Source of the DNA: a phage
Length of the DNA stretch: 64,000 nucleotides
Sequence record: PZ347661.1
Direction: 5' to 3' (one strand)
Shown here: piece by piece, positions 2,428 through 48,848 of the stretch
How positions within the stretch are numbered: position 1 is the first letter of the stretch
Layout: every line of letters starts with the position of its first letter
Made by a program: the position numbers and the translations under genes
The notes under the pieces: generated by a model
Seen by the model: only the letters and a program-made list of their open reading frames with translations
Told to the model about the DNA's origin: nothing
The model's database searches: none

Positions 2428-2502
2428 TTCCTGAATAGTTAGACCCGAAGGGTCAACCGTACGAAGTACGGTTAGATATGTATTTAAATAGGAGAAATAA
2501 CC

Positions 2503-2820: not shown

Positions 2821-3037
2821 TGTAATTGTAGGTAATGAGATATTCGTTGACCGAAAAGGTTATGCCCGAATTAAACTAAAGGGTACTAACAGAACTATTG
2901 TTCGTAAGGTGTACTCTAAACCTTTTAGCAATTTCTCTATTGATGAAGTACGTATTAATAACAGGATGTACTTCATAGATAGTAAAGTATCTGTATGTCA
3001 TACAGATGGTAAAACCTCTCTTGAATATACTTACTAA
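2804..3037 (+). CDS. hypothetical protein (77 aa, GTG start)
   Basis: ORF overlapping previous gene end. Confidence 0.35.
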   Translation: MNNLSDVIVGNEIFVDRKGYARIKLKGTNRTIVRKVYSKPFSNFSIDEVRINNRMYFIDSKVSVCHTDGKTSLEYTY

Positions 3038-3049
3038 GGAATAAACAAA

Positions 3050-3271
3050 ATGTTGTTCAGCACTAATTATGGTATTTGCCCGATTTGCAATAAAGGAAGA
3101 GGAGTTGCTAATCATAAGAAGTGTAGTCGTATTCTACAGAAACAACGGAACCAGAAAGAATGGGATAAGATATTGGAAAACCAACACAAAGATGAGTTCA
3201 AGAAGACAGCTGTTAAGGCATCTACTCAGCTCATTCGTCGTACTAACTTCATAGAAGGTTATCAGAAATGA
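3050..3271 (+). CDS. hypothetical protein with N-terminal CPICNK motif (73 aa)
   Basis: ORF with AAGGA RBS; Cys pair may indicate a zinc ribbon. Confidence 0.5.
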   Translation: MLFSTNYGICPICNKGRGVANHKKCSRILQKQRNQKEWDKILENQHKDEFKKTAVKASTQLIRRTNFIEGYQK

Positions 3272-5876: not shown

Positions 5877-5891
5877 AGCTGCTCCGCAGCT
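5877..5891 (+). promoter_or_regulatory. Hairpin promoter candidate of the N4 virion-RNAP type (stem AGCTGC/GCAGCT, loop TCC, then TTTGG)
   Basis: Perfect 6-bp inverted repeat with TCC loop, immediately upstream of the RNAP II genes. Confidence 0.55.
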
Positions 5892-31716: not shown

Positions 31717-32469
31717 ATGTCCGAAGTAATTCCCAATGATATGAACACTCAGCTAATCCTGATTGCAGGATTCTCAGCGAGCGGTAAATCAGCATCACTG
31801 CGTAACATCCGGAACCAGGAACGCTGGCTCTATCTGAACACTGAAGCAGGTAAACGTCTGCCTTTCCGTAACAAATTCAATACCTACAACATCGAAGACC
31901 CATATCAGATTTGGGAAGCATTTGATGTTGCATCTCCTGGTGGAGAAATGGCAGATGATGTTGATGGTATCATCATTGACTCAGCAACCTTTATGATGGA
32001 TATGCTGGAATCCCAGTATGTATTGCCCTCTGCAAACACACAAAAGGCATGGGGTGATTTTGCACAGTTCTTTAAGATACTGCTGCAACAGAAAGTTGTT
32101 AAGTTTGGTAAGCCAGTAATCATTACTGCTCATGCTAAAGACGAACTGGATGAAGCTGCTGGTGTGATGAAAACATTCATCCCAGTGAAAGGTTCTCTTA
32201 AGAATAACGGGCTTGAAGCCTACTTCTCTACAGTGGTTTACGCAGAACGTGTAGACATTAAAGAACTGGAGAAGTATGGGAACAAGATGCTTGAAATTAC
32301 GGAAGAAGAACGTGACTTAGGGTATAAGCACGTATTCCAGACCCGTCCAACCAAGAAGTCAGTAGGTAAACGACTTCGTTCCCCAATGGGTATGTTTGAT
32401 AAGTCCGAGACTTATATCGACAATGATGCCCAGAAACTCTTAGACCACCTGGCTGAATACTACGCTTAA
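31717..32469 (+). CDS. P-loop ATPase (250 aa)
   Basis: Walker A GFSASGKSAS and Walker B-like IIIDSAT. Confidence 0.55.
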   Translation: MSEVIPNDMNTQLILIAGFSASGKSASLRNIRNQERWLYLNTEAGKRLPFRNKFNTYNIEDPYQIWEAFDVASPGGEMADDVDGIIIDSATFMMDMLESQYVLPSANTQKAWGDFAQFFKILLQQKVVKFGKPVIITAHAKDELDEAAGVMKTFIPVKGSLKNNGLEAYFSTVVYAERVDIKELEKYGNKMLEITEEERDLGYKHVFQTRPTKKSVGKRLRSPMGMFDKSETYIDNDAQKLLDHLAEYYA

Positions 32470-32508
32470 GCGTTTGTCTGGTTGTTAATCACTTATTAGG
32501 AAAATCAT

Positions 32509-33312
32509 ATGTCATTGTTCAGTAATCTGAAAGAAAAAACCAAAAACGTTGAAGCTGCTAAAGACTCCCTGGGTGGGGGTGGCTTCGGTGCAAAAGAAAC
32601 CGATATCTACACCGGTACTGTAAAAGTAGCTTACGTAGGCAAAGCTGACTCTGGTGCAGACTGGATGCAGTTAATCATTGAAGACCTGAAGAACTCTGAT
32701 GGCGTACCTGCTGGTGAGTTCCGTGCTCAGGTGTACTTCACTTCTGGTAATGCTAAAGGTAACAAGCCAACTTACGAGAAGAATGGCAAAGAATACTTCT
32801 TGCCTGGCTACACTGTCATTAACGACATGATGCTGATGGCTACCGGTACTGAACTGCCTGAAGCAGACTTCGAAGAGAAGATTGTTAAGGTCTATGACTT
32901 CGATGCTAAAGCAGAGGTTAATAAATCCGTCATGGTTCCAGTTGACCTGGTTGGTCAGACTGTTACCTTCGCTCTGGAAAAAGTTCTGGAATCTAAGCAG
33001 GTTAAAGGTGACAACGGCTACGTTGACTCCGGTGAAACTCGTGAAGTAAACGAGATCCAGAAAGTGTTTCATCCGGAACTGCTGGTCACAGTCGTCGAGG
33101 CTCAGGAAGCAGAGAAGGCTGAGAAAGAACTGACCCCAGAACTGGCTGTATTCTATGCAGCATGGCTGGAAAAGAACAAAGGCAAGACTCGTGATAAGAC
33201 CAAGGGTTCTGCTGGTGGTAATGGTAAAGGTGGCTTGCCTCCTAAACCAGGTGCAGGTGCTGGCACGGGTACTACTCCTGCTGGTGGTAAATCACTGTTC
33301 GGTAAACGTTAA
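32509..33312 (+). CDS. single-stranded DNA-binding protein candidate (N4 gp45-like, 267 aa)
   Basis: Size and position match the N4 SSB (recalled as ~265 aa); Gly/Pro-rich flexible C-terminal tail; inference. Confidence 0.5.
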   Translation: MSLFSNLKEKTKNVEAAKDSLGGGGFGAKETDIYTGTVKVAYVGKADSGADWMQLIIEDLKNSDGVPAGEFRAQVYFTSGNAKGNKPTYEKNGKEYFLPGYTVINDMMLMATGTELPEADFEEKIVKVYDFDAKAEVNKSVMVPVDLVGQTVTFALEKVLESKQVKGDNGYVDSGETREVNEIQKVFHPELLVTVVEAQEAEKAEKELTPELAVFYAAWLEKNKGKTRDKTKGSAGGNGKGGLPPKPGAGAGTGTTPAGGKSLFGKR

Positions 33313-33866
33313 TGAAAATCCCAATTGTTGGTGCAGACATTAGTCTCCGCAATTGGGGTTTAGCTCGTGGGATGCTGGACATTGAGTCCGGCGTCTTCGA
33401 GCAGGTCGAACTTAAACTGGTTCAAACTGAAGTTGACCACAACAAACAAGTTCGAACCAACTCCAAAGATATACAAGCCGCTCACGATTTGTTTCTTGGT
33501 TGTGAGGAATGGTTACGGTCTGCTAAAGCAGTATTCGTAGAAGTACCAGTAGGCTCTCAGTCTGCTAACGGTATGAAATCCTATGGAGTATGCGTAGGAT
33601 TAATCGGTGCATTTCGTGCATTGGGTTGTCCAATCTTTGAAGTATCCCCAATTGAAAACAAACTTGCACTGGTCGGTGATAAAACTGCATCTAAGGACAC
33701 GATGATTCGTGCTGCTCATGCCATTTATCCTGAAGCCAACTGGCTCACAGATAAGAAGGGCAAACTTCTGAATAAGAATGAGCACTTAGCAGATGCAATC
33801 GGTGCAATCCATGCTGGTGTAAATCTCCCAGCTTTCCAGAACCTCATTAAGTTATTAAAGGCGTAA
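33312..33866 (+). CDS. RuvC-like Holliday junction resolvase (184 aa)
   Basis: N-terminal VGADISL (catalytic Asp), FVEVP (Glu), C-terminal HLADAIGAIHAG resembling the RuvC HxxDAxxxA motif. Confidence 0.55.
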   Translation: MKIPIVGADISLRNWGLARGMLDIESGVFEQVELKLVQTEVDHNKQVRTNSKDIQAAHDLFLGCEEWLRSAKAVFVEVPVGSQSANGMKSYGVCVGLIGAFRALGCPIFEVSPIENKLALVGDKTASKDTMIRAAHAIYPEANWLTDKKGKLLNKNEHLADAIGAIHAGVNLPAFQNLIKLLKA

Positions 33867-33867: not shown

Positions 33868-34320
33868 ATGCAAATCATTTTGAACCAGTCCGAAGTAGAA
33901 GCTGCTGTACAGGCTTATGTTGATGATCAAATCAATCTTGCTGGTGACATTAATATTGTCATCAATGCAGATGGTACAGCCTCCGTTGGTATCAACGAAG
34001 AGGTTCACGAAGATACTCCACCCGTGGGAGTAGAGAAGAAAACTCGTCGTTCTCGCAAAAATCCACAGGAAGCTAAACATCGTCCGGTAGAACCAGAGCC
34101 GGAAGAAGCTGTTGAAGAGGTAAAGGTAGAAGAAACCCAGACCTCTACTGGTGGTCCGAACGGGAATTCTACGCCGGAACCTGAAGAAGAAGCAGTAACT
34201 GAACCAGTAGCACAAGAAGAAGTTGTGCAGGAAGAGGCCAAGAAAGAAGATCGTGAGCTTCCTCCGGAAGAACGACCGGTAACGAAGCCTTCACTGTTCG
34301 CTGGCCTTAAACGTAGTTAA
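33868..34320 (+). CDS. hypothetical acidic protein (150 aa)
   Basis: ORF; Glu/Pro-rich C-terminal half. Confidence 0.5.
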   Translation: MQIILNQSEVEAAVQAYVDDQINLAGDINIVINADGTASVGINEEVHEDTPPVGVEKKTRRSRKNPQEAKHRPVEPEPEEAVEEVKVEETQTSTGGPNGNSTPEPEEEAVTEPVAQEEVVQEEAKKEDRELPPEERPVTKPSLFAGLKRS

Positions 34321-34551
34321 TCTGGTAGGTGGCTCAGAAGCTGCTGCTATTTGTGGTAGTGTTCATAATTCTGATGCTATTGCTTATCAGGATTCTGGAC
34401 GTGTCGGCTCCATACATAGCATTTATCATCACTGTGCTTATACTTTGGAAACTCAGTGATAAAAACGGTGGTGACAAGCCGCCAGACTAACAACAACCGA
34501 ACCAGTGTGCAGGAATACTCTCCCCTGTGCATTGGTTCAACTGAGACTAAT

Positions 34552-34722
34552 ATGAACAAATTTACTATTCACTGGCTCAATGGAAAGGTTAGTTCTTTCA
34601 TGGGTGGAGAACCTGTTGAAGGAAAGAAAGCATTTCACATTGAATCAGAAGGCTGCAAAATCTTAATACCATACGCTTGGTATAAAGATGGTGAAGTAGA
34701 AGCATTAAAAAAGAGTAGTTAA
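34552..34722 (+). CDS. hypothetical small protein (56 aa)
   Basis: Internal ATG of track ORF 34456; weak RBS. Confidence 0.25.
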   Translation: MNKFTIHWLNGKVSSFMGGEPVEGKKAFHIESEGCKILIPYAWYKDGEVEALKKSS

Positions 34723-35144
34723 TATCGTGAAGGGTTCTGTTAGAATCCTTTGAGATAGGAACTCCTATCATAACCTTTCTTAACTTAATCTTTGCCGTAT
34801 GGCACTGACGCTAGGGGTGGCCCCCCATCCGTCAGGTAGACTATTTTAAGAATGGGTTATCACAGCAAATGTAAAGCAACATTCGGGTTAATCAATGGCC
34901 TCTCCCTATAGGGGCCATTTCTGAATCTTAGGCTATATCCCAAAGGTTAATATCTTTGGGATAAGGCTTCAGATCCCTTATCAACTAACCGCTCAATGTT
35001 GAGCATTTTAATCACATAAGCCCCTATATGGGCTGGGTTAAATGTCGGATAGCATAGCTACCTACAGCATCGAATTGTTAGGTCTTACATGCAAACTAAA
35101 TCATAGGGTAAAGAGGGACTCGTCCTCCCTCCCCTATTATAATG

Positions 35145-35214
35145 GTCGGGGTAGCGCGTAGGCATGTGCAGAAGGTCGCTACTTCTCTCGCTGGTTCGAA
35201 TCCAGCCCCCGACC
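35145..35214 (+). tRNA. tRNA-like element A (about 70 nt, isotype undetermined)
   Basis: 7-bp acceptor pairing GTCGGGG/CCCCGAC, U8-A9, T-arm GCTGG-TTCGAAT-CCAGC, possible anticodon stem AGAAG/CTTCT; hand fold leaves a short variable loop; no encoded CCA. Confidence 0.4.
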
Positions 35215-35765
35215 TACTGACATCCTATCAATGAGTACATTAGGCTAACGTGCGGAGGTTTACACTGTAGCCGGTGTAGGTGGAGAAGACGGCAGGATAG
35301 CTACCTGTGCTTAGTGTACTCTTTGATAGTTTTCGTAAGCGATTATGCGGTTTTTTAGAAACGAACCAATAACATAAATGCAAACGATGATGTTGTTCTG
35401 ATGGCGGCGTAATAGCCTATAAGTCAGCAAGGTCTTCCGATTCCTTGTAAACAAATTCGGCGCAGTGGCCCGCTGTGATTAATAATGGGCACACAACAGG
35501 TAAGAGCATTTAGGCTACTGAGAAATCATCCGAGGCAATCAGACCTATCTTCTGTTAAGTGCTCTTTCCGTTGTGGTGAATGTGCAGGCTGATGCGCAGT
35601 GGGACGTGGCTGACTCACGAGGATGGCTCAAGCGAATAAGCAAGCTCGACGCCGCCGAATAAGCGCCTTATGCCGGAGATCAGTACCGGCCACCACAACA
35701 AGTCCAGACGATATCTGAGTGACTATAAAAACAGATGGAGCCAGGTGGAATCCCTGGCAACTAAT

Positions 35766-35831
35766 TCCGGTGTAGGTACTAGTGTCGTGCACGGCATGAG
35801 TGTTCTGGTTCGAGTCCAGACGCCGGAACCA
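35766..35831 (+). tRNA. tRNA-like element B (only about 63 nt plus encoded CCA; non-canonical)
   Basis: Acceptor pairing TCCGGTG/CGCCGGA (one G-U), T-arm TCTGG-TTCGAGT-CCAGA, discriminator A and CCA encoded; too short for a standard D plus anticodon arm. Confidence 0.3.
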
Positions 35832-35833
35832 AT

Positions 35834-35957
35834 TACCAGTTGCACGAGATGGCTTGATATGTTCAAGTTTGGACTAAGTGTGACACCGCTAGATTGGAGA
35901 GCTGCTGCGGTAAGCTATAGACTCCAACCGGGGGTTCGAATCCCTCACTGGTAACCA
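35834..35957 (+). tRNA. tRNA-like element C (perfect 7-bp acceptor pairing spanning about 121 nt; possible insertion)
   Basis: TACCAGT at 35834 pairs with ACTGGTA at 35947; T-arm GGGGG-TTCGAAT-CCCTC; discriminator A and CCA encoded; internal length exceeds any standard tRNA. Confidence 0.3.
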
Positions 35958-36401
35958 ATTCAAAGTAGCATTGCACTAATCCATCCCGGAGTTCAAAGGC
36001 CAAACATGGAGCAGTGCTACTTTGAATTAGAAAGATTATGGGGGTAAGTCGTAACCATACGACGGCGTAAGTACCAGATGAGACTTCTGGACGCCCCTAC
36101 CAGATTTGGGGTGTAACAGTTAGATCCAGTTGCCGGAAGTGCTATTCTAGATACGCTGCCAATGTGTGAACGGTAAGGCTGTACAGGACTCGGACTCCCA
36201 CCTCAAACCAAAGTCGCCAGGTACTTATGGCAAACGGGTAGTAACGAACTAGTCATTCGTCAAACGCCCAACCTATTATGAGTCAGCAAGAACGCCTTCA
36301 CTTAAACTTAAACAAAAAAGCTTAACGCAATAATTATGTAGGGGTATGTAAGGATTGCGAAGAAGGAGCCAGTTAAAGTCTGGCATGGCTCAACCTATTA
36401 T

Positions 36402-36475
36402 GCCCACTTAGCTTAGACAGGGAAAGCAACCGACTAATAATCGGAAGGTCACTGGTTCAAATCCAGTAGTGGGTA
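36402..36475 (+). tRNA. tRNA candidate D (74 nt cloverleaf, anticodon uncertain)
   Basis: Acceptor GCCCACT/AGTGGGT (G-U first pair), D stem GCTT/AAGC, anticodon stem CCGA/TCGG with loop CTAATAA, T-arm ACTGG-TTCAAAT-CCAGT; the hand fold gives an unusual AAU anticodon. Confidence 0.45.
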
Positions 36476-36791
36476 CTTATTTGCTGCAATATTCCCATAG
36501 GGAATGGTGCCGTATACGCCACCTAGTTTCTGGTGAAACTCCAGATGCAGCAATCCATTCAGCAGTAACATAGTCCTGATTGCATTGCACTCTAAAGACA
36601 ACACTGGTAAGACAGTCCAGTGACTGCTAATGTACTGTTATTCCCCTCGACGGGAATTTCGCTAGTGAAGGTAACACTTAAAAATCCAAACCTACGTCTT
36701 ACTACTATCGGGCTATCAACCCACAGTCGCTTAACACACTAGTGGTAGTAGTTTGACGGCCTAGCCTCGTTAGCTGCGTTAAAGCTACTAA

Positions 36792-36817
36792 GTCCCTCTT
36801 CGGAGGGACTTTTTTAT
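36792..36817 (+). terminator. intrinsic terminator
   Basis: AGTCCCTC-TTCG-GAGGGACT followed by TTTTTT. Confidence 0.7.
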
Positions 36818-36986
36818 TTGAGTATTAATAAATGGATATTCAGGATGATTGACCTAATTTCTACTCCGTATGCCTATGAGGTAACGGATAACCGAGGACA
36901 TAAGTACTTGGTATTTGCAGGTAGCGTAGCCTATAACAACGCAGTAATGTTTAAGTACAAACTCAAACCACTCTATGAGGCTAATA

Positions 36987-37367
36987 ATGGCAACAGTAAG
37001 TAAAGAAGCAATCGAAGCTAAGATTAAGAGCATTTACTTTTTCAATGGTGCTGACGCAGTGAAGTCTGCATTCGTTGATCCATCTGCACTTCCAGCAGAT
37101 GATTTGGCTAACCTGGGTCTGACAACTCATTGCATTATCATCCTGGAAAATGGATTCAAAGTTGAAGGCGTATCCGCCTGCGTAGACCCGGCTATCTATG
37201 ATGAGCAAAAAGGTCGTCAGTATGCATATGAAAATGCATTCAATAAGATTTGGGAATTAGAAGGTTATCTGCTACGTCAGGCACTGCATGAGAAAGAAGA
37301 GACTGCTAAAGCTCTGGCTTCCTTTGCAGAAAACAATACCTGTGATGGTGGTGGTTGTACAATCTGA
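36987..37367 (+). CDS. hypothetical protein (126 aa)
   Basis: ATG with GAGG RBS. Confidence 0.5.
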   Translation: MATVSKEAIEAKIKSIYFFNGADAVKSAFVDPSALPADDLANLGLTTHCIIILENGFKVEGVSACVDPAIYDEQKGRQYAYENAFNKIWELEGYLLRQALHEKEETAKALASFAENNTCDGGGCTI

Positions 37368-38012: not shown

Positions 38013-41000
38013 TTAGTTAGTGAGGTTGAGCCAAGGGTTCAGGTTATGAGCACGTAAGCCTTGACCGAAACCGAAGGAGTAACCAAGGTTGCCTTGTGCA
38101 GCAATGCTAAAGATGTTGTCCTGAATAGGCAGGCCAACGTTACCAAACATAGTAGGAGTTGGAGCCAGCATAGCCATAGCAGCATGTACAGGGTTGTTAC
38201 GAATCATGGACACTGCAACTTTTGCGGAACGAATCTTAAAGTTGTAGAACCACATAAGACCAACGCTTTCCATATAACCACGGAAGCGTCCTGGCAAACG
38301 GTCATAGTTAATGAACTCTTCCGTCACACGTCCAAGTGCTTCTTCACGGGTTTTACCTTTACGCTTAGTCAGTTCATCATAGATGATCGCTTTAGCAATA
38401 AAGTCAGAGTACTCAACCGTCTTCTGGATACCCTGGAAGAGAGCAGTATCCTTAGTGATAAGTGCATAACGACCTGCATTGCGTACAGACTTAGGCAGCT
38501 TATCAGCCAGCTTATCCATGTATTCGTGGAGTTTGCCCTCAGTAATCAGGATGTCATCACGTCCAATACCAGCATCTGCAATTGAGGAGAACTCACCTGC
38601 TTCTAGCAGAGGCCAGATACTCAAACGCTTATGACTATCCGTGATGGACTGAATCTCAGCTTTCAACTTACGAATCTGGTTCGGGTTAGTAGCTGCACGT
38701 AATTCTGCTTCTGCATCTACCTGACGTAAACGAGATTTCAGATACTGGTTAATCTCAGCAGTCTTCTGTGGAATGCTCTTAGCAATGTTCTTAACGGGTA
38801 CACCACGAGCAACCATCTGATAAAGGTTAGCCAGGAAGTTAACAGCAGGTACGACTACTGACTTAACTACAATCAGAGTCTTAGCTTCTTTAACTAAGTT
38901 TTGAACCAGGTTCTCACCACCCATTACATACTTGTAGGCACGGTTGCCGAATACACCCAACATAGCCTTCTTGAAGGTATCCAGCGTTTCTGGGGACCAA
39001 CGAGAATTACCAGACCAGGCATCACCAACGGAAGCTGCACGATAACCAAGAGCATCATTAAGCATGTCACGACGTACCCACAGCTCACCTGGGCCAAACA
39101 GACTTTCTGCTTTCTGACGTGTTTCACTGTTCATCAGTTTAAGAGCATCGGCAGTTACTGGGTCCAGTTTAGAACCAAGAAGGTTAACGTACTGAGACTT
39201 ATTAGAAGCAGACATCTTAATGTCGTTCTCATACATGCTATACAGATTCTCAATTAGCATATCGTTGAAACGCTGGGCCTTGGCCTCTTCTACCTGACGA
39301 CCACGCCATACACCAATTGCACGAGCAAGATGGTTCTCACCCTCAATGTGCTTCAGCATGTTAGGGTCAATGGATTGCTCATAAGCAACCACATTACCAT
39401 TGGCATCATATACAGGCAGAAGTGGTTCATTACCTCGTTCACCACGAGCCAGTGCTTTGGTGATACGGTCCACGGAAGGCTTGTCAGTAATACGACCTGC
39501 TACCATGGTTCCCATCGTAAAGCCTGTACCAAGGTCTACACCACCAGCAGTATTACGAACGTTCTGTAAGATACCCTGTGAGAATGGAGCCTGTGACTGT
39601 ACTGGTGCAAAGTAGTAGCTACGTGCTGGACCACGATTAGCAGAGCTACCCTGATAAGTACCCAGACGTACATAAGACTTCTCAATCAAATCAGCAAATT
39701 GATTATCTTCAGCAACAATCAGGTTAACACCTTGTTTGTTCTCACCAGGGATATACCCTTTGTACTGGTTCAAGGTTGCACGCGAATCAGACTTGGCTTT
39801 AGCCATTTCATCCTTACGTTGACCAACCAGGTAAGAAGTAGCAAAGTCCATACCTTCAATTTCTGTCTGAGCCAGTAAAGATAACATCTCACGGTCAGAT
39901 TTATTCATTGCTTCCAGTGCATACAGGGTAATGAGTTTATCCAGTTGAGCTACATCAACAACAGAGCGTGTAGTCTTACGCTCACCCAGCAAGCGTGAAA
40001 TTGCAGTAGCATTACGCAACAAGTTATTTCCGACTGTACCATTAATCATGTACTGAGCCAGTTGCTTAGATTTACGGCTAATCAGATGCCAGTTACGTCC
40101 TGCTTGTTTCTGCAAATCTGCTTCCAGTTTATTAACCTCACGGTCAACAATCTTCTGGTCAGACAACAGGTCACGAATTTCAGCCAGAGACATAGTGTCA
40201 CGCAGGACAGCTAAGTCAGTTTTACCCATACCGGTATGCATTGCTTTCCACTCAACATTAGTCAGCTTACGGCTGAACTTAGATGCGATAGTGGTAGGCA
40301 GGTGTTCACGGAACTGTTGACGGTCAGCCTGTACCTGTGCACGTACTGCTTTAATCAAATCATATACAGAAGCATTACTCTTAGTACGACCGATTATGTC
40401 ATTAACCAGGTCATGGAACGGTTGCCATACTTTACCCTGGTTCATTGCAGCCATAACACCTTCAGCTACGATTGAACCATTCTTCTCTGTAGCAATAGCA
40501 GCTACCAGTTGTGCAGCATGAGCAGCACCTTTAACCAATGGGTTCTTGGTATTAGCTGCAACTTCACGAGCACCTTCCAAAGCACGGGTAGACAGTACAT
40601 CAATAGAATCCACCAGATACTGGTTAGCACGGTCAATAGCATTACCGGTAGGAGTAGCAACGGAATCATAGAAGGACTCTGCATTAAGACTGGTCTGCAT
40701 AATTGTCTGAGCTAGTGCATCCATACCTTCTTGTACGTTAGTGGCTTTAGTATCGCCTGCTACACGGGCATTCAGACTAGCCATTGCAGCAGTACCGATG
40801 TTAGTCAGCATTGCATCAACAGTATTGCCTGACTTCTTATCTGCTTTCATAACAGGAATATCAGCCAGTACTTTACGTACCTCTTCACTTACCATTGCCA
40901 GACCAACAAAGGTAGGCAGCAAGGAAGAACGACCCTGTGCATCAAACTCAATGTTGTTAGCACCCATGATGGTATCGAACTTCTGCTGTGCATAGTAACG

Positions 41001-44000
41001 GTCAGCAGGGTTAGTACTATCTGGGTCAGCCATGAACGATTCAACAGTTAGGTTCTTAGTAACGTGTGTGTAGTATTCCTGTGCACGAGCCATGGCAGCT
41101 GGGTTAATAGCAGCCTCGGTAGCCAGTGCAGCAACAATGTTAGTGAAGAGACGCTGTTCCTGCATATTCATGGTGAAGCCATGAGCCTGAACATCACGAG
41201 TTACTTTAGTTGCATTCACTACTGCATCAGAGAACTTACCTTTACGAATTACTTGCTGTACTGGTTCTGAACCAATGTAGTCAGTAATCAGTTTATCGAA
41301 GGTTTTTCCTAACTCTTCCAGACGAGTATTGTTACCGTATGCTTTGTTATGGAACAGGGTAGTGTCCTTAGCTACAGCAGCAGTAGGAGCCTGTCCACGC
41401 ATAACTACAGCAGAGTTAAACAGTAAGCCAGAGAACATATCATCTGCATTAGACGGAGCTTTCTTACGTCCAAATACCAGGCGTTTGATTGCTTCATATA
41501 CAGCCTGAGCCATAGCTTTAAGTGCAGTGGTTTTCTTCTGCTTACCAATCAGTTCACGGTTAGTTAAGCCCCAAGCCATGTACTCATTCAATGCAGCAGC
41601 TTTAGCCATTGCTGGTTCAATGAAGCCATTGGACAAGTGACCATTAATGGTATTCAGTGCATCAGCATATGCTTCACGTACTACCGGAGATTCATCCTTA
41701 ACATCCAGAGTACGGAATTGGTTCATCAGGTCTTCAATATTCTGGACAGCTTCATTAGGAGTACCCTCATAGTGAGCCAGTACAGATTCAAAAGTAGAGG
41801 CATGTACTAATTCATGAACCAGAGTCTCTAAGGAAGGGGTAACTAAGTAGATGGTCTTATCTTCAAAGTTAGTCCAGCCATATGCATTACCAGCTTCAGC
41901 AGCTTCAATATCTTCCGGTGCAGGGCGAGTAATATTCTTCTCAATAGCGTAGGCATCCAGTTGAGAAGGTGTACCGTAAACAACCTTATAGTCTTTAGCA
42001 GCAAGAGATTTCTGTATTTCTTTCAATACTGCTTGCTGTTCAGGAGACATCTCTTTAGCCAGCTTAGTGATAGCAGTATTAGACAGCAGACGTACACCAG
42101 ACTTCAGTACACGACCTACCTTCTCCATAGCTGGTACAACTTTCACCGGCACTTCCTTCACTGGTTCTGCCTTCGTTGGTTCCGCTTTAGCAGCACGTAC
42201 TGCTTCACGACGCTTGTTTAGTTCAGCATCAAACAGCTCGTTCAGCTTAGCTACTTGCTGGTCTACAGTCAGACCTTCCAGAGAGATTTTACCGTTGTTC
42301 ACATAAGGAGCACCTACAGCAGCCATCTGGTCAACAGTGACCTGTACCTGGTCCATTACCTTGTGACGAATATCTACACCCAAAGCAATGTTACGCAGGT
42401 TACGCTCAATCAGTGCAATACCAGAATCTCTAATCATAGAAATTTTATAATCTCTATCACCATCTACTCTGGCAATATGAGCACGTTGCTCAAAGTCTAA
42501 AGCAGACTTTGCAATAGCATCTATTGCTGAATCGGACAGCTTATTTAAATCAACATTCTTAACAAACTTAGAGAAAGACTCATATACATTCTTGATAGGG
42601 TTACCCTGCCAGGAAGTATATACAGCCTCATTAGCTTTACGGCTTGCATCAGTAATGTCATTAATACCAATGTTCATACCATCAAAGATTTTCAGGGTAT
42701 TCTTCGGAGCACCTTTCATAGTAGAAAGAGTCTGCATCATCATGCCATCACCAGTACCGATGGTCATAAATGGAATACCTGCAACACCTGCTTGCGAAGG
42801 AGCATAGATGCTCATTGGCACACGCATACGGTCATCTAAGTTGGTGGCCAGTACTTGGTTAGCAACATCAGTGTTTTCACTACCAGCAATGTAGAAAGTC
42901 TGTGAGCCAGTCTTAATCATTGGAGCCAGTGGTGCTAAGCTATTCTGGATTTCATTCAGTTCTTTCTGTGTTAAGAAATCGCCTTTTTTCCATGTTGGGT
43001 CTTTTTCTTTTTCTGCCAGCTTAGCCTGTACTGCCTGTTGGAACATATCCTGCAATACCAGAGATTGTATCTGAGTAGCCTTCTGCAAGTTCTCAGTAGA
43101 GTGCATCAACCCTTCACCAACAGTAAATCGGATACCTTGTCTCATTGGCTCAACAAAGAAATGCAGCATATTCTCTTGTAAGTTCTTCAGAGCATCCCCG
43201 GATACGGTAAACTCCTGAGGATTTAACTCACCAGTCAGAACACCATCTACTTCCTTAATAAATAACCTACCTTTGCGTTTGGCTGGAATCTTGCCAGTCA
43301 ATGCTTCCATAGAAGTAAGGAAGGTATCCAGCATAGCCTGAGCATCAGCTTCAGAAGCAGCCTCCTTACCAAACATCGCCATAGCTGGGGAAATGCTAGG
43401 GTCAGCAGCACGGGCTTTTAGAACGTCGCTTAAGCGTTCATAGATGGCGTCAGTAATTGCACTTACCATCTTGCCTGCAATACCGCGAGCACCAGAACCA
43501 TAAATGGTAATAGTCAGTGGGTTTTTAGCGATACCACGCTTCAGGTCCAGAGTACCATCTTCATTAAGATTGAAGTCTTTGATGAACAGGTCCATTAACT
43601 TCTGGAGATGGTCCATCTGATTTATAATAGGAATATTTTTGCTGTAAGTATTGCGTAGTTCATTCAGATGGAATTGCAGACTATTGGTAGATGCTTCATA
43701 CAGGTCAACATTATCATCCTGAGTATGATGCTCATTCATAGTCTTACCGGCTTTACCGAAGAACAAACCACCTTTAGCAGTATTCTTAATCCAGTTTGGG
43801 GTGAACTTACCACCAGTCATTAATACCATTGCGTTGATTGGCCCGTTGGTTACACCATCGGCTTCAACGTACAGTGGGGTATTAAAGTTGGCTCGGTCAT
43901 CACTGTTAAGGTAACGGGCATATTCCATAAGAGCCATGAGAGCTACAAATGATTTATCATTACCCAGAGATGTTCTCAGGATATCCACTGCGTCAGCAGG

Positions 44001-47000
44001 CAAGTATCCAGACTTATCAAACTCAACCATCATATCTACAGCAGGCTTCAGTTTACCTTCCAGAGCCTTGGTAAGTTCTTCTGACATAGTTTCACGAGTC
44101 ATTTTATGAACTTTGATACCCAATGCCTGAGCCAGACCTAACTGGAAGCCAGAGAAGTCTTCATTGTTTTGGTTCGATAAATCCAGAGTAGCTTTAGTAG
44201 GTAAGATAGCCTCACGAACCAGCTTAGCTGATTGAGGATTGTATTTGCCCAACATCTGCATACGACCAACACGGGTCATATTGTAAGCATAGTGAATAGG
44301 TACAGAAGAAATGTCTTCACTCTGTGCTCTCACCTGTTCAATAACAGAGAACAGTTGGTTGTAAGAATCTTCTACAGAACGATTCTTACCTTCCAGAGAT
44401 TTAGCATGGTTCTTATTAAGTAAATCCTTATCCAGAGTACCTGCACCCATCAGTTCAAGGATACGGTCTTTACCTAATGCTTCATAGAACTGAACCATTG
44501 GAGTATGTACAAAGAACTCAGTAGCCTGTTCTGCTTTAAGAGCAGCTTTCTGTTCTGGAGTATTACGGACAGCAGGGTTACGTAACTGAGTAGGAGCCAC
44601 TGAAGGAATATCATCACCCAGGTACAATTTCTCTTCTGGTTCTACGAGGACAGCTTCCTCGATAGCAGTAGGGAATTTGTTAATGGCATCGTTATCATCC
44701 AGTTTCTCAATGGTATACAGACCAATAGTCTTATTAGATTCTGGGTCAATTTCAGACACATCAAGCATAGACTCTTTAACTTCACCCATCTCAATGAGAG
44801 AAGACAGAATCTCTGTAGCCATTGCCATTGGAATACCTTTGGTATAACCCAATGGTGCATCAGCATTACGATTAAGTCCCCAATAAGATTCAATCTTTTG
44901 AGCCAGTGAGTTAGTAGCTTCTACTAAGGTTTGTGCATTCTCAAATTCTGCGAGGATGCCCTCTGGTAACAAGGAAGCATTTACACCAGTAATTGCAGCC
45001 ACATCCTGCATGTCTTTAATAGCAGCATTCTGTGTAGCAGTAAGTCGCCATTGCAGACCAGCAAGTACAGCAGTCTCTAATAACTGGTCATTGAACTTAA
45101 AGGTATCACCATCTTTCTCTACGATGTTAAGCAGTTTGCCACCTACCCAACGGTTAGCCTCAGTACCCTCTGCAAAACGTTTACCAACATTCTTGTTAGC
45201 AAGGAACTTAGCCAGACGATCAGACAGAGTAGTCTTCAGAGTTTCACCAAAATCAAATAAGTCCTGGTAACGCTTAATCACATCACTTGTGAGAGCGTTA
45301 TTTTCTCTTTGAGTGAATGCTTCAAAACGAGCAGCAGAAGACAATGCTTTCTTAACATCAGTCAAAGGAGATTCAGAACCAATGGTACGAGACTTAGGTT
45401 CTTCTGGAAGAGAAAATGCTTTAAGGAACTGGTTCGGTGTCTTGTCGTTGTTATAGACAGGGAACACTGTTTCTATTCCCGATAGAGGTTTACCGCCAAC
45501 GGTATAGTCTGCTTTCAGTTGAGCCAGTGATACTTCTTCCTTCTCGACGTTATTGGTATTAAGCCCAGATGTATCTACACCAATCTGAATCAGTGCATTG
45601 TTTGCTTCTACGAATGATTGAACAGTATTAAATTGTTCCGGGGTCAGCTTCTGGTTATCAAACAGTTGCAAAGATACAAATGGTTGTTCACTACCTTTGT
45701 AGAAGGTAGAGCGAATAGCACCAGTATCTAAAGACATATCACGATAACCATCATGACCAAATACATCAGACAGACTGATATGGTCACCATTAGAACCAAC
45801 AACAGTACCATCAGCAAAGAGCCATGGACTTTCCCTACGGTCACCATACTTATTAAGAGTATCTTGTGAAATAGTATTCTCTTTCACATAAGAATCTCTT
45901 TCAGATTCAGTAGGCTGTTCAACGGTATCCTGTTTTTCAGACTGGTTCTCAGGTTCTTTTACAGTCTGTGGTTTAGACTCTTTATTAGTAGGTTCTGTTT
46001 TAACAGCTTCACTAACAGAGGGTTTAGTCTGTACAGTAGGGGTAACTGGTTCCTGTTTCGTAACAGGAGTTTCATCAACCTGATTCACTGGTTCATTGGT
46101 CTGTTGGGATTGAGCAGCATCAAGATTGCCCTGACGGAACTCTTTAACTACCTGGGCAGCAGGCTTGTCCAGACGTGAATCCAATGGGGTAACTTTCACA
46201 TGAGAAACATTAAGCTCCGGGTAAGCCGTAGCAAGTGCGTTAGCAATATCAGCTACGGTCTTGGCTTCCAGTCCTACTTGCTGGGCAAACTTAACAGACT
46301 TGGTATCATACGGATTGACACCGAGGCCAGTACGACTACGTACCCATTCACGCGAGGGAGTAAGAGCCTGATAATGGACAGACTTATTCTTATCCGCATT
46401 CCCAGAAATCAGATGCTCATTCAACGCTCCGACCTTATTCTGCATGTGCTGGGCGAACTTCATAAAGTCGTCGAGATAAGCGGAAGCCAAATCGAAGTTA
46501 CCAGAGTTGTACGCAGAACGAATGCGTTTAGCATGTTGCAACGCAGAGTACTGGCCTTCATTAGAACGAGATTCGTCGGTTTTAATTTGTTTACTAACAA
46601 TGTCTTGAGGACGTAAGCCTAGTTCTTCTGCTTTAGCGTCAAATTCTCGTGCTCCTTGCAATAGAGCAGCAGCAGATTGCAGGGCAGCACGCTGACGATT
46701 CCCCAGTGTAATCTTACCTTCACTCGCATGTTTCAGAACCATGTTCACTGAATCTGCATCCAGTACTTCTGGAGACACATCAGCAGCCATAGCAATATTG
46801 TTTGCCTGGGCTTGGTTAGCTTCTTCAGTAGCTTTCAGTTTACCTGCTTCAGCCTGTTCCTGAATCATGGAATGAATGGCACGGAATGCACGGAGTACTT
46901 TCGGTGTATTCTGAACATTAGCCATCAGGCCGGAGAACTGGTCAACGATATTAGCAGCAGGAGAACCCTGTTCCAGATTAGCTAATGCACCTGGGTCACG

Positions 47001-48848
47001 GTTAATGAAGCTATCCATAGACATGATGTTGTCATACATCTGGATTGCAGCTTCCATTTGAACGTTAGGGTCTTCAGCAGTATTAACCAGGTCAGCCATC
47101 TTCTGAATAGCTTCAACACGGTTAGTGGAACCAGAAACAGCTTCACGGATTGCAGGACTAGCTTGTTCCAGTTCTACTGGGTCAAACTTCATTGCCTGAG
47201 TTAAGTCAGCAGCATACTGAGTAGCAGCAGCTTTCTCTTCAGGAGAAATATCCATTGCATCTACTGCTTCCTGAACAGTTGCTTGTGCTTGTTCTGCCTG
47301 AGCAGTAGCTTCCTGTGCAGCAGCGTTAACTGTAGCATCTGATACAGGGGATGCTTGTTCATTACGCTTAGCAACTTCTTCTCCACGTTGAACCAGAATG
47401 TTAGTAATAGGTGAAGCTACTTTTGCTAATGCCTTACCAGCCAGAGAAGCACCAGCCAAGGTAGTACGTACAGCAGGACCAACGGCAGCACCAGCAGCCT
47501 TAACAGTTGCACCAGGAGCTTGAGCAACTCCAGCAGAACCGAAGCCGTACAGTGCACCCAGACCTGCTTGCTCACCAACACCTTTGAGGATGTCACGAGA
47601 TGCATCAACATTACCTTGGATTGCCTTGTTCTGTGCAAACTGACTTGTACCAGACTGGATACCTTCTTCTACAGTCTCACGCAGCATGTTGGAACCAGCA
47701 CCAGCCAGTGAACCTACCTTAAGTGGATTAAGTTCAAACTTGGATACCAATGGAGCAGTAAGAGCAGCAACTGGAGCAGTTAAACCAGCAGCAGTGATAC
47801 CTGTTTCAGATGCAGTCTGACGTCGTGCCTCTTCAGGAGTTAAGCCGTCTTTAATGTGTTGTTGGTATACAGGAGATTTAGCAGCCAGTTCACTGAATGG
47901 CATTTCCATAATTTCATTGGCAGTCTGTTGATATGCACCACCAGCTTCCATACCACCAATTGCTATAGCAGGTGCAGCAATACGACCAGCAGTCTGTGCA
48001 ATCCGTGCAGGACGTGAACCTAACTCAGCAGCTAAGGTAATACCCTTAACAGCTTTGTCCCCACCTACCATTACTTTACCAAGTGCGGATACACCACGGA
48101 TAAGTGGACCACCAGTGAAGAGAGAACCAACGCCTTCAGCCAGACCATCTGTAGCAGCCATGCCATTGGACAAGGTATTAGCAACAGAATCATAAGCATC
48201 CCGACCAATTCGAGACAGAGAAGCAACGAGTTCACTTTCTCCTTTAGCAATATCCTGCTTATAGAGTTTCTCATTTTCCTGTGCAGATATTACGTTCTGG
48301 TTCTGTACTACATTACGACGAGCATTCAGTGCATCAGACTGTAGGTTGTGTACACCTTTATTCAACCAGTCAAGACCGGAAGCAATGGATGCCCCGGCAT
48401 TATCATTGACCAAGCCTGTGCCAAGAGCAGCAATGCCCCCAAGGGTATTAGCAACACCAAGACCAACACCAGAAAGGGTATCACCAAGTGCTTCACCATA
48501 TGTGCGACTCTTAGTTAAATCACGACGAACAGCATTAGCTGCATTGACACGAGCATTGAGAATGTCCATTCCTTGCTCATTGCCATACTTGTTTACGATT
48601 TCAAGAGGGGAGGCATTAGTAAAATCTGCCTGAATAGAACCTGGGTCAAATGCACCAGCACCTAAGTCACCGGCACGTCCTGCCTGTAATTGGTAAGCGT
48701 TCTGAGAAGTTAATTGGAAAGGGTTTTGCCCTTGTTCAGCTTGTTTCCGAGAGGTTGCAGTAGAGACATCGACTTGCTTAGCAGTAGTGATGCTGTCTGC
48801 GAAACCTGCCAGACGGTCAAATGTTGACATAGCATGATTCCTGTTCAA
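38013..48848 (-). CDS. virion-encapsidated RNA polymerase (N4 gp50-like vRNAP, 3611 aa)
   Basis: Single giant ORF at the late-region position where N4 encodes its ~3500-aa vRNAP; internal KNPLTITIYGSGARG resembles motif B of T7-like single-subunit RNAPs. Confidence 0.85.
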   Translation of the reverse strand: MNRNHAMSTFDRLAGFADSITTAKQVDVSTATSRKQAEQGQNPFQLTSQNAYQLQAGRAGDLGAGAFDPGSIQADFTNASPLEIVNKYGNEQGMDILNARVNAANAVRRDLTKSRTYGEALGDTLSGVGLGVANTLGGIAALGTGLVNDNAGASIASGLDWLNKGVHNLQSDALNARRNVVQNQNVISAQENEKLYKQDIAKGESELVASLSRIGRDAYDSVANTLSNGMAATDGLAEGVGSLFTGGPLIRGVSALGKVMVGGDKAVKGITLAAELGSRPARIAQTAGRIAAPAIAIGGMEAGGAYQQTANEIMEMPFSELAAKSPVYQQHIKDGLTPEEARRQTASETGITAAGLTAPVAALTAPLVSKFELNPLKVGSLAGAGSNMLRETVEEGIQSGTSQFAQNKAIQGNVDASRDILKGVGEQAGLGALYGFGSAGVAQAPGATVKAAGAAVGPAVRTTLAGASLAGKALAKVASPITNILVQRGEEVAKRNEQASPVSDATVNAAAQEATAQAEQAQATVQEAVDAMDISPEEKAAATQYAADLTQAMKFDPVELEQASPAIREAVSGSTNRVEAIQKMADLVNTAEDPNVQMEAAIQMYDNIMSMDSFINRDPGALANLEQGSPAANIVDQFSGLMANVQNTPKVLRAFRAIHSMIQEQAEAGKLKATEEANQAQANNIAMAADVSPEVLDADSVNMVLKHASEGKITLGNRQRAALQSAAALLQGAREFDAKAEELGLRPQDIVSKQIKTDESRSNEGQYSALQHAKRIRSAYNSGNFDLASAYLDDFMKFAQHMQNKVGALNEHLISGNADKNKSVHYQALTPSREWVRSRTGLGVNPYDTKSVKFAQQVGLEAKTVADIANALATAYPELNVSHVKVTPLDSRLDKPAAQVVKEFRQGNLDAAQSQQTNEPVNQVDETPVTKQEPVTPTVQTKPSVSEAVKTEPTNKESKPQTVKEPENQSEKQDTVEQPTESERDSYVKENTISQDTLNKYGDRRESPWLFADGTVVGSNGDHISLSDVFGHDGYRDMSLDTGAIRSTFYKGSEQPFVSLQLFDNQKLTPEQFNTVQSFVEANNALIQIGVDTSGLNTNNVEKEEVSLAQLKADYTVGGKPLSGIETVFPVYNNDKTPNQFLKAFSLPEEPKSRTIGSESPLTDVKKALSSAARFEAFTQRENNALTSDVIKRYQDLFDFGETLKTTLSDRLAKFLANKNVGKRFAEGTEANRWVGGKLLNIVEKDGDTFKFNDQLLETAVLAGLQWRLTATQNAAIKDMQDVAAITGVNASLLPEGILAEFENAQTLVEATNSLAQKIESYWGLNRNADAPLGYTKGIPMAMATEILSSLIEMGEVKESMLDVSEIDPESNKTIGLYTIEKLDDNDAINKFPTAIEEAVLVEPEEKLYLGDDIPSVAPTQLRNPAVRNTPEQKAALKAEQATEFFVHTPMVQFYEALGKDRILELMGAGTLDKDLLNKNHAKSLEGKNRSVEDSYNQLFSVIEQVRAQSEDISSVPIHYAYNMTRVGRMQMLGKYNPQSAKLVREAILPTKATLDLSNQNNEDFSGFQLGLAQALGIKVHKMTRETMSEELTKALEGKLKPAVDMMVEFDKSGYLPADAVDILRTSLGNDKSFVALMALMEYARYLNSDDRANFNTPLYVEADGVTNGPINAMVLMTGGKFTPNWIKNTAKGGLFFGKAGKTMNEHHTQDDNVDLYEASTNSLQFHLNELRNTYSKNIPIINQMDHLQKLMDLFIKDFNLNEDGTLDLKRGIAKNPLTITIYGSGARGIAGKMVSAITDAIYERLSDVLKARAADPSISPAMAMFGKEAASEADAQAMLDTFLTSMEALTGKIPAKRKGRLFIKEVDGVLTGELNPQEFTVSGDALKNLQENMLHFFVEPMRQGIRFTVGEGLMHSTENLQKATQIQSLVLQDMFQQAVQAKLAEKEKDPTWKKGDFLTQKELNEIQNSLAPLAPMIKTGSQTFYIAGSENTDVANQVLATNLDDRMRVPMSIYAPSQAGVAGIPFMTIGTGDGMMMQTLSTMKGAPKNTLKIFDGMNIGINDITDASRKANEAVYTSWQGNPIKNVYESFSKFVKNVDLNKLSDSAIDAIAKSALDFEQRAHIARVDGDRDYKISMIRDSGIALIERNLRNIALGVDIRHKVMDQVQVTVDQMAAVGAPYVNNGKISLEGLTVDQQVAKLNELFDAELNKRREAVRAAKAEPTKAEPVKEVPVKVVPAMEKVGRVLKSGVRLLSNTAITKLAKEMSPEQQAVLKEIQKSLAAKDYKVVYGTPSQLDAYAIEKNITRPAPEDIEAAEAGNAYGWTNFEDKTIYLVTPSLETLVHELVHASTFESVLAHYEGTPNEAVQNIEDLMNQFRTLDVKDESPVVREAYADALNTINGHLSNGFIEPAMAKAAALNEYMAWGLTNRELIGKQKKTTALKAMAQAVYEAIKRLVFGRKKAPSNADDMFSGLLFNSAVVMRGQAPTAAVAKDTTLFHNKAYGNNTRLEELGKTFDKLITDYIGSEPVQQVIRKGKFSDAVVNATKVTRDVQAHGFTMNMQEQRLFTNIVAALATEAAINPAAMARAQEYYTHVTKNLTVESFMADPDSTNPADRYYAQQKFDTIMGANNIEFDAQGRSSLLPTFVGLAMVSEEVRKVLADIPVMKADKKSGNTVDAMLTNIGTAAMASLNARVAGDTKATNVQEGMDALAQTIMQTSLNAESFYDSVATPTGNAIDRANQYLVDSIDVLSTRALEGAREVAANTKNPLVKGAAHAAQLVAAIATEKNGSIVAEGVMAAMNQGKVWQPFHDLVNDIIGRTKSNASVYDLIKAVRAQVQADRQQFREHLPTTIASKFSRKLTNVEWKAMHTGMGKTDLAVLRDTMSLAEIRDLLSDQKIVDREVNKLEADLQKQAGRNWHLISRKSKQLAQYMINGTVGNNLLRNATAISRLLGERKTTRSVVDVAQLDKLITLYALEAMNKSDREMLSLLAQTEIEGMDFATSYLVGQRKDEMAKAKSDSRATLNQYKGYIPGENKQGVNLIVAEDNQFADLIEKSYVRLGTYQGSSANRGPARSYYFAPVQSQAPFSQGILQNVRNTAGGVDLGTGFTMGTMVAGRITDKPSVDRITKALARGERGNEPLLPVYDANGNVVAYEQSIDPNMLKHIEGENHLARAIGVWRGRQVEEAKAQRFNDMLIENLYSMYENDIKMSASNKSQYVNLLGSKLDPVTADALKLMNSETRQKAESLFGPGELWVRRDMLNDALGYRAASVGDAWSGNSRWSPETLDTFKKAMLGVFGNRAYKYVMGGENLVQNLVKEAKTLIVVKSVVVPAVNFLANLYQMVARGVPVKNIAKSIPQKTAEINQYLKSRLRQVDAEAELRAATNPNQIRKLKAEIQSITDSHKRLSIWPLLEAGEFSSIADAGIGRDDILITEGKLHEYMDKLADKLPKSVRNAGRYALITKDTALFQGIQKTVEYSDFIAKAIIYDELTKRKGKTREEALGRVTEEFINYDRLPGRFRGYMESVGLMWFYNFKIRSAKVAVSMIRNNPVHAAMAMLAPTPTMFGNVGLPIQDNIFSIAAQGNLGYSFGFGQGLRAHNLNPWLNLTN

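Follow-up and report, generated by a model that had tools for sequence, protein, structure and literature searches.

In phage T4 the tRNA array is followed on the same strand by the genes of two small stable non-coding RNAs, species 1 (rnaC) and species 2 (rnaD), which lie before the next protein gene. The species 1 and 2 RNAs are processed from a tRNA precursor and their role has been unknown for decades. Bacterial tRNA operons can yield a 3′ external transcribed spacer RNA; in Escherichia coli the short 3′ETS-leuZ (~50 nt), which works through base pairing, reportedly acts as a sponge for the small RNAs RyhB and RybB (Lalaouna et al. 2015). Phage N4 has been a model phage for 60 years and is a classic system for the study of transcription; we found no description of the RNA reported here, or of an N4-like tmRNA, in the literature searched. 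The early promoters of the N4 virion RNA polymerase (vRNAP) are hairpins with a 5-7-bp stem and a 3-nt loop, located upstream of early genes at the left, first-injected end of the genome (PMC4496689). These promoters need a GC-rich heptamer centred on the loop, a template loop of 5′-GRA-3′ (-10G, -11R, -12A) and -8G (PMC4496689).

We analysed a 64,000-nucleotide stretch of phage DNA (PZ347661.1), referred to here as the window, which belongs to a G7C/N4-like coliphage of the Gamaleyavirus type (Schitoviridae, Enquatrovirinae). An island free of open reading frames separates its gp47-like and gp48-like genes, and phage N4 has an equivalent gp47-gp48 gap at 32112-33632 in NC_008720. In N4 and its relatives the annotation of the gap consists of scattered tRNAs only, although some records place spurious small ORFs there. 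Within the window the island contains an array of tRNAs and tRNA-like folds, with a single intrinsic terminator at its end, and several further tRNA-like folds emerge at relaxed ARAGORN thresholds. Copies of a T-arm-plus-acceptor repeat (family D1) start at 35805, 35931, 36452 and 36530. The island of N4-like coliphages also includes a reading frame like that of a tmRNA tag (ANDDVVLMAA, ANEEAYLMVA and other variants), to which no tRNA-like domain is attached. The main features are as follows.

~34723-36830: ORF-free island, flanked by gp47-like and gp48-like genes
34894-34919: conserved 10-bp hairpin, AAUGGCCUCU/AGGGGCCAUU, with its loop end at 34904-34913
35022-35032: small AGCCC/GGGCU hairpin, missing in G7C and St11Ph5
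35144-35215: weak "tRNA-Ala(CGC)", from ARAGORN and Rfam
35766-35831, + strand: conserved ACCA-ended tRNA-like element
36402-36476, + strand: tRNA-Ile, anticodon AAU, called by ARAGORN; Rfam tRNA score 63.7 bits
36481-36553, presumed + strand: tRNA-like cloverleaf, 73 nt, beginning 4 nt past tRNA-Ile
36491-36505, + strand: hairpin 1, ATTCCCATAGGGAAT (AUUCCC-AUA-GGGAAU), 6 bp with a 3-nt loop
36556-36817, + strand: conserved structured RNA of ~260 nt that closes the tRNA array on its 3′ side (the 3′ RNA), 5′ end approximate
36640-36657, + strand: hairpin 2, ATTCCCCTCGACGGGAAT (AUUCCC-CUCGAC-GGGAAU), with a 6-nt loop
36790-36817, + strand: intrinsic terminator, AAGUCCCUC-UUCG-GAGGGACUU with a U run, hairpin at 36790-36811
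38013-48848, minus strand: vRNAP gene, an ORF of 3611 amino acids

The 2.1 kb surrounding the two hairpins match G7C-like N4-type coliphages at 90-97%, in pieces. In a comparison of 30-odd loci the island proved to be a mosaic, made of sharply bounded modules that are gained and lost between phages. Relatives carry different sets of tRNA and odd tRNA-like genes at the same site; those of N4 are Asn, Ser, Thr and Pro, and those of KP8 include Asn, Pro and Gln among others. Two families of structured RNA emerge from this island, an unannotated conserved family in N4-like phages that contains hairpin 2, and a tRNA-like family in which hairpin 1 belongs to a rare member.

Two hairpins with the same stem

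A first-pass annotation made from the letters alone had drawn attention to two ATTCCC/GGGAAT hairpins with different loops. Both are present, the second lying at 36640-36657 and not, as given there, at 36641-36658, and when 36470-36830 is folded, both are retained in the minimum-energy structure and in the centroid. The same annotation had added two similar CCC-TATA-GGG palindromes, at 34904-34913 and 35022-35032, which we consider a misreading. Neither has the ATTCCC/GGGAAT stem and they are parts of different, unrelated hairpins; in the 34894-34919 hairpin the "CCC" lies in the loop and varies across relatives (-CC, UCC, CCA).

The pattern ATTCCC-N3-8-GGGAAT occurs twice in the 64 kb against an expectation of 0.02, and two occurrences were reached in none of 100 shuffles; the bare hexamer is not enriched, with 31 seen and 23 expected. 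As the pattern had been picked post hoc, we ran a fairer test, which counted any two perfect hairpins with identical 6-bp stems and loops of 3-8 nt that lie no more than 200 nt apart. One such pair was observed against 0.01 expected, and a pair was seen in 1% of the shuffles. The shared stem is unusual against random sequence. Random sequence is nevertheless the wrong null for this region, because the region is dense with structured RNA.

The resemblance of hairpin 1 to the N4 early promoters raised the question of whether it could serve, as a hairpin in DNA, as a vRNAP promoter. The genome is N4-like, and the hairpin has a short, 6-bp stem, a 3-nt loop and a C:G closing pair. It differs in loop, core and genome position, however. 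The core reads CCATAGG and the loop ATA/TAT, which supply neither the GRA loop nor the GC-rich heptamer, hairpin 2 has a loop of 6 nt, and the hairpins sit beside the vRNAP gene at 36.5 kb, where the rightward gene block ends, rather than at the left end. Hairpins with the promoter features do occur in this genome, at 87-99, 756-770 and 1016-1030; the promoter-type hairpins have the core GC-TCC-GC on the + strand, equivalent to GC-GGA-GC on the template strand. We find a promoter role for hairpin 1 barely credible. We also rejected both hairpins as intrinsic terminators. The bases after hairpin 1 are GGUGCC and those after hairpin 2 are UUCGCU, neither of which contains a U run, and the terminator scan lists neither hairpin.

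Hairpin 2 within the 3′ RNA

Hairpin 2 is one helix, P4, of the ~260-nt RNA at the end of the island, the other helices of which are listed here.

36562-66/36623-27, + strand: P1
36573-75/36597-99, + strand: P1.1
36578-83/36587-92, + strand: P2
36602-07/36617-22, + strand: P3, with loop UAAGACAGU
36665-68/36676-79, + strand: P5
36701-09/36744-52, + strand: P6, 9 bp, enclosing GGG-CUAUCAA-CCC at 36710-22
36771-75/36783-87, + strand: P7, UAGCU-GCGUUAA-AGCUA, followed by the terminator

From ~36556 to the terminator the sequence is conserved at ~95% in G7C, ~72% in the ECBP1/Bp4/St11Ph5 group and ~75% in N4, and it is also found in Klebsiella phages of the KP8 type. RNAalifold, applied to 16 sequences, returned a core of P1, P1.1, P2 and P3, with double changes in 11 of the 19 pairs. 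To this core we added P4 and P5, giving a 5′ covariance model of 147 positions (R1). The model finds exactly one match per locus in 39 loci, phage N4 included, with scores of 103-163 bits. It has no match in a set of more distant N4-like loci, in which tRNAs are present, and it finds no second copy in the window. A weak repeat between 35951-35977 and 36565-36591 had been a candidate for such a copy and was rejected on this result.

In the R1 alignment 95.6% of pair cells are paired, compared with 32-40% when the partners are slid, and a compensatory change is seen in 16 of the 29 pairs, counts that come from a model-fitted alignment and are biased towards the structure. The covariation score is 0.34 versus 0.16 in shuffles, on sequences that are closely related (36 distinct rows with an effective number of ~2). 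Compensatory and G·U changes stand above both the slid and the shuffled controls, which is the general mark of a conserved structured RNA. Structure extends into the 3′ half (36695-36817), where 10 of the 29 pairs covary.

The RNA does not correspond to an Rfam family. For 36477-36780 a search against Rfam 15 gave nothing at E ≤ 10; at 36782-36823 there were only sub-threshold, terminator-shaped matches, besides a weak one to Ysr49 (36726-36815, E = 1.4). Nothing similar was present in 5,426 E. coli genomes, and a host origin was rejected.

P4 itself is paired in 91% of cells (it is helix 5 of the alignment), with two pairs showing compensatory changes and four showing one-sided changes through G·U. 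Its commonest form, AUUCCC-CUCGAC-GGGAAU, is shared by the window, G7C and most Gamaleyavirus sequences. Elsewhere the helix is built from other sequences: CGUCCA-UUCCUCU-UGGAUG in N4, CAUACC-UAAC-GGUGUG in ECBP1, CAUACCCACU-GACG-AGUGGGUAUG in St11Ph5, CAUAUUCUUC-GACA-GAAGAGUGUG in phi G17 and CAUACCCC-CGACAA-GGUGUAUG in KP8 and Jgk1. Its length is variable across relatives and includes 10-bp versions. Since the pairing is kept while sequence and length vary, it is the pairing that is conserved and not the ATTCCC sequence. The helix is disrupted in Uz-1 and deleted in nithesis, and is therefore dispensable in at least these two phages. The loop contains a semi-conserved YGAC, for which a search by eye for a tertiary partner gave nothing consistent.

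The P4 variants also point to the strand on which the RNA is made. Predicted folding energies for the sense and antisense versions were -10.1 versus -5.2, -13.4 versus -4.3 and -9.4 versus -5.5 kcal/mol. Because G·U pairs stabilise the sense over the antisense form in these variants, we assign the 3′ RNA to the + strand.

Hairpin 1 within a tRNA-like cloverleaf

Hairpin 1 occupies the D-arm slot of the 73-nt cloverleaf that begins 4 nt after tRNA-Ile, as in a tandem tRNA array. A comparison of the junctions shows that here, and in only a few very close relatives, the cloverleaf lies between tRNA-Ile(AAU) and the 3′ RNA. In all other relatives the 3′ RNA is directly adjoined by tRNA-Ile, as in most of them, or by another element. 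The remaining parts of the cloverleaf are the following.

36482-88/36546-52: acceptor stem, 7 bp, UGCUGCA/UGCAGCA, then a 2-nt linker
36506-09/36520-23 and 36511-12/36517-18: central arm, GGUG.CG-UAUA-CG.CACC, 18 nt, with the 4-nt loop UAUA
36529-33/36541-45: T-like arm, UCUGG-UGAAACU-CCAGA, preceded by a 5-nt variable region

The minimum-energy and centroid structures are the same, at -28.2 kcal/mol (z = -4.16), and none of 200 shuffles folds as well. Because all 24 of the base pairs are Watson-Crick, the antisense strand gives an equally good fold (-30.8 kcal/mol), and the strand was taken from the likeness of the T arm to those of the + strand tRNAs. The register of T arm and acceptor fits the neighbouring tRNAs, as members of the D1 family.

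Compared with a canonical tRNA, the cloverleaf has the expected dimensions, with its 73 nt, 7-bp acceptor, 2-nt linker, three arms, 5-nt variable region and 5-bp T stem closed by a 7-nt loop. The nucleotides of the tRNA elbow, in contrast, are absent: the T loop reads UGAAACU rather than UUCRANY and has no UUC, and the D arm, with 6 bp and a 3-nt loop, lacks G18 and G19. The central arm, which ends in a loop of 4 nt, does not have the 5-bp stem and 7-nt loop of an anticodon arm. ARAGORN does not call the cloverleaf at its default setting, only at a 70% threshold (-ps70), and a 354-nt search against Rfam gave no tRNA match at E ≤ 10. The loss of the elbow nucleotides and the lack of a 7-nt anticodon loop point to a non-decoding tRNA mimic.

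A better conserved relative of the cloverleaf is found upstream in the same island. The ACCA-ended element at 35766-35831 folds into a 7-bp acceptor and one long central hairpin (loop UGCA), with discriminator A and CCA, and its T arm, UCUGG-UUCGAGU-CCAGA, is canonical. It is 96% identical in N4, and among 18 distinct sequences compensatory changes occur in the central hairpin and the T stem. Its similarity to the cloverleaf gives a score of 22, equalled by 1 of 1000 shuffles, and on this sequence comparison the cloverleaf is a diverged paralogue of the element. Compared with the paralogue and with tRNA-Ile, the acceptor stem and the T stem of the cloverleaf have changed on both sides, yet they pair.

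The cloverleaf, and hairpin 1 with it, is rare and recent. No match was obtained in 50,697 phage records, and copies were found only in the window and in three near-identical metagenomic contigs. These four copies differ from one another by one substitution, at a position that is already mismatched. An exact 17-mer scan of IMG/VR returned the known contig and one chance match, on a 94-kb contig in sequence that looks coding. The predicted structure is drawn from thermodynamics and paralogy, with no support from covariation, and the cloverleaf could be non-functional. This is also the starting point for a different reading of hairpin 1, as a remnant in a decaying tRNA pseudogene, with the cloverleaf functionless and the resemblance to hairpin 2 due to chance. 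Such decay would fit an element that tRNA models do not recognise, that has no T-loop UUC, D-loop GG or 7-nt anticodon loop, that is confined to four near-identical sequences and that sits in a mosaic where modules appear and vanish between phages. Drift would not, however, produce 24 perfect Watson-Crick pairs and a fold four standard deviations below shuffled sequences, nor does it sit well with stems that have changed on both strands relative to the paralogue and tRNA-Ile while keeping their pairing. We consider a pseudogene unlikely, although it is the alternative to which we give most weight.

It could also be argued that the hairpins act as DNA, as a cruciform or recombination site, as a replication origin or as junctions at which modules are shuffled. 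A mosaic island whose modules have sharp limits and whose junction motifs recur would be the setting for this, and the cloverleaf, being all Watson-Crick, folds equally well from either strand. The G·U pairs that relatives use at P4 and most other helices, on the other hand, become A-C mismatches on the opposite strand and would be meaningless in duplex DNA. The junctions between modules, moreover, fall at CCYATT motifs and not at either hairpin. A role at the DNA level therefore appears highly improbable, and we return to the reading of both hairpins as helices of RNA.

The shared stem and a proposed RNA operon

With each hairpin placed in its own RNA, the question becomes why the two stems are identical. 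One answer would be that they are copies of a single sequence-specific motif, (U)AUUCCC/GGGAAU, that is read by an RNase or by a protein of the phage or the host. The identity of the 6-bp stem extends to a UA before both copies (TATTCCC...GGGAAT), the count and the same-stem test both exceed random expectation (two copies against 0.02; 1% of shuffles within 200 nt), and ATTCCC/GGGAAT is the most frequent P4 stem among Gamaleyavirus sequences. Against this, the 64 kb hold no third copy, the loops are unlike in length (3 versus 6 nt) and in sequence, and P4 pairs with other sequences and lengths in relatives, N4 having none of the stem sequence. The absence of hairpin 1 from all 50,697 phage records means that there is no conserved two-site system. 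Local alignment of the cloverleaf with the 3′ RNA gives a score of 16, which 26% of shuffles reach. We regard a common recognition motif as improbable.

Two further origins for the stem were tried and rejected. Duplication finds no trace in the alignment of the cloverleaf and the 3′ RNA, which is not significant outside the stem itself. A dispersed hairpin family, such as REP or MITE-like elements or a repeated operator, does not agree with two copies in 64 kb and one, hairpin 2, in most relatives. The identical stems are probably a coincidence between helices in a region dense with RNA; since a same-stem pair arises in only 1% of shuffles, a cause other than chance keeps some probability.

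The first-pass annotation had suggested that the recurrent stems are protein-binding or RNA-processing sites rather than random sequence. What holds of this is that both are selected structures of a non-coding island that produces RNA, in view of the covariation of P4 and the z-score of the cloverleaf (-4.2). The idea of a repeated site is not supported, as there are only two copies, with different loops, in two unrelated RNAs.

We think it likely that each hairpin is an intramolecular helix of its own RNA, that the two RNA genes are unrelated neighbours in a rightward tRNA/tRNA-like operon, and that the common stem is coincidental. The terminator at 36790-36817 closes this operon. It is the sole 9-bp-stem terminator-like site on the + strand within 34300-37100, it has already been annotated in G7C and PhAPEC7, and its stem covaries. 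We infer that the RNAs of the island are transcribed, cleaved by RNases and stable, and that the 3′ RNA has a function. The island would be transcribed rightward as one precursor up to the terminator, and host enzymes would cut this precursor, RNase P at 5′ ends and RNase E/Z behind 3′ ends. The units shaped like tRNAs, among them the cloverleaf, would act as punctuation, and a stack of acceptor and T arm would suit the cloverleaf to processing. The terminal RNA would then be released as a stable species, its 3′ end shielded by the terminator hairpin.

A broader and more speculative hypothesis is that the gp47-gp48 island of N4-like coliphages, more than a simple supplement of tRNAs, is a toolkit that combines tRNA mimics without a decoding role and RNAs related to translation, which act jointly on host translation, on trans-translation or on tRNA-targeting defences. 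Its parts may be the ~260-nt terminal RNA, the ACCA-ended element with its cloverleaf paralogue, and the tmRNA-like tag frame. We hold this to be rather unlikely; were it true, the terminal RNA would be a new class of functional RNA in N4.

Taken alone, the two hairpins are unremarkable as RNA helices. Following them up shows that the gp47-gp48 gap of N4 and its relatives encodes at least one conserved, covarying RNA of ~260 nt that is outside Rfam and unannotated in the GenBank records inspected, as well as conserved tRNA-like RNAs. The covariance model and coordinates could replace false "hypothetical protein" annotations in the region.

The 3′ RNA has the position of 3′ETS-leuZ, between the last tRNA and an intrinsic terminator, and like it carries the hairpin and U tail of that terminator. 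By analogy, it would come free through processing of the tRNA 3′ end. Unlike 3′ETS-leuZ, it has at least eight helices. With T4 rnaC and rnaD it shares the layout of a tRNA array followed by small stable RNAs on the same strand ahead of the next protein gene, and rnaC bears a tRNA-like T-arm sequence, GGGUUCGAAUCCC, as do elements of the island. Model R1, run with filters off, does not match T4 rnaC/rnaD (70908-71171); its best score in 6 kb was 11.5 bits (E = 0.26). In contrast to the two T4 RNAs, the 3′ RNA is ~260 nt long and modular, and includes its own terminator. Together with the T4 species 1 and 2 RNAs, it would be one of the stable phage RNAs tied to tRNA clusters.

The tmRNA-like module and a second structured module

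Within the RNA island, the ORF-free region that holds tRNAs and tRNA-like RNAs, we identified a tmRNA-like module carrying a tag frame, and a second conserved structured module.

35225-35414: tmRNA-like module, tag frame at 35379-35411
34860-35143: conserved structured module, a long-range helix with three enclosed hairpins

The tag frame reads GCA AAC GAT GAT GTT GTT CTG ATG GCG GCG TAA TAG, which encodes ANDDVVLMAA followed by two stops. Among 23 distinct sequences the reading frame, its length and the stop are all maintained, third codon positions vary (GCG GCG, GCA GCC, GCT GCT), and the peptide variants are ANDDVVLMAA, ANDDVILMAA, ANDDVVLMVA, ANEEAYLMVA and ANNETYLMVA. The frame lacks an AUG throughout this set, and inspection by eye revealed no obvious Shine-Dalgarno sequence. 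Upstream lies a covarying helix of ~20 bp with a variable apical insert. The module gave only sub-threshold matches in Rfam, to tmRNA_permuted (31-33 bits) and beta_tmRNA (17-20 bits). A tRNA-like domain consistently linked to the tag frame was looked for and not found; in the 'tRNA-Ala(CGC)' at 35144-35215, pair 3-70 is U3-A70, not G3·U70. The tag module is missing from the relatives N4 and G7C and is unannotated in the GenBank records we inspected.

In the second module the long-range helix, of ~20 bp, is formed between ~34869-34890 and ~35060-35085. The hairpins inside include one of 10 bp, AAUGGCCUCU/AGGGGCCAUU, and one with 21-nt arms at 34925-34974. Only two pairs covary, sequence conservation in this module being too high for much covariation to be visible.

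tRNA-like RNAs and unusual tRNAs

35766-35831 (region 35701-35834): tRNA-like RNA ending in ACCA; 7-bp acceptor, central hairpin and canonical T arm
35884-36030: tRNA-like piece, T arm GGGGG-UUCGAAU-CCCUC, then ACUGGUA-ACCA (35930-35957)
36105-36204: 'tRNA-Ser(GCT)'-like fold

The central part of the ACCA-ended RNA is a single long hairpin with the loop UGCA, and a further hairpin, GCCAGG-UGGAAUC-CCUGGC, sits upstream. In shape this RNA resembles the tRNA-like domain of a tmRNA, standing alone and capped with a tetraloop. The N4 copy is 96% identical, whereas the 3' RNA of the same island, the structured RNA ending the tRNA array, is only ~75% identical between the window and N4. In KP8-type phages the ACCA-ended RNA shows compensatory changes. 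The core of the 'tRNA-Ser(GCT)'-like fold is likewise conserved in N4, at 97% identity. Directly after the T arm and ACCA piece at 35930-35957 comes an 18-bp stem (35957-74/36011-28).

Several phage tRNAs have unusual anticodons or loops (window 36402-36476; related locus L003, 2301-2379; phage nithesis locus, 3159-3234), namely Ile(AAU), Cys(ACA), which has A34, and 'tRNA-???' genes that encode the ACCA end and have an anticodon loop of 6 nt. These features suggest that such RNAs may not be plain decoding tRNAs.

Module junctions and annotation of the island

35132-35143, 36266-36282, 36388-36402, 36472-36482, 36553-36561: junction motif sites, also in relatives' loci
Phage nithesis locus, 1593-3144; G7C locus, 850-1347: island with small-ORF annotation or an inserted gene

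A recurrent motif, approximately CC(Y)ATTAT(G) or CCCATT, lies just 5' of each tRNA or tRNA-like module; for example, CACCCATT flanks tRNA-Ile on either side. The motif borders modules whose presence or absence differs among phages; its candidate roles are processing site, middle-promoter element or recombination seam for module shuffling. Some GenBank records annotate the island, on both strands, as 'hypothetical proteins' of 30-45 aa, which are likely false gene calls across structured RNA. The G7C island contains an inserted HNH endonuclease gene, an arrangement that recalls segB within the T4 tRNA cluster.

Hairpins across the window

Perfect hairpins with 6-bp stems and loops of 3-8 nt number 281 in the whole window, against 110 ± 13 in shuffles, with 24 same-stem pairs against 2.6. 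Terminator-like CCCTC...GAGGG stems with T runs after them account for many of these pairs. There are three copies of ACCTTC-NNN-GAAGGT, at 1049, 27876 and 30845. Four hairpins with 3-nt loops share the core GC-TCC-GC.

87-99: vRNAP-promoter-type hairpin, GTTGC-TCC-GCAAC
756-770: same type, AGAAGC-TCC-GCTTCT
1016-1030: same type, AGACGC-TCC-GCGTCT
5877-5891: same type, AGCTGC-TCC-GCAGCT

Three of the four have the expected left-end location; the remaining one, at 5.9 kb, was not expected there. On the template strand these hairpins fit the description of N4 virion-RNA-polymerase promoters.
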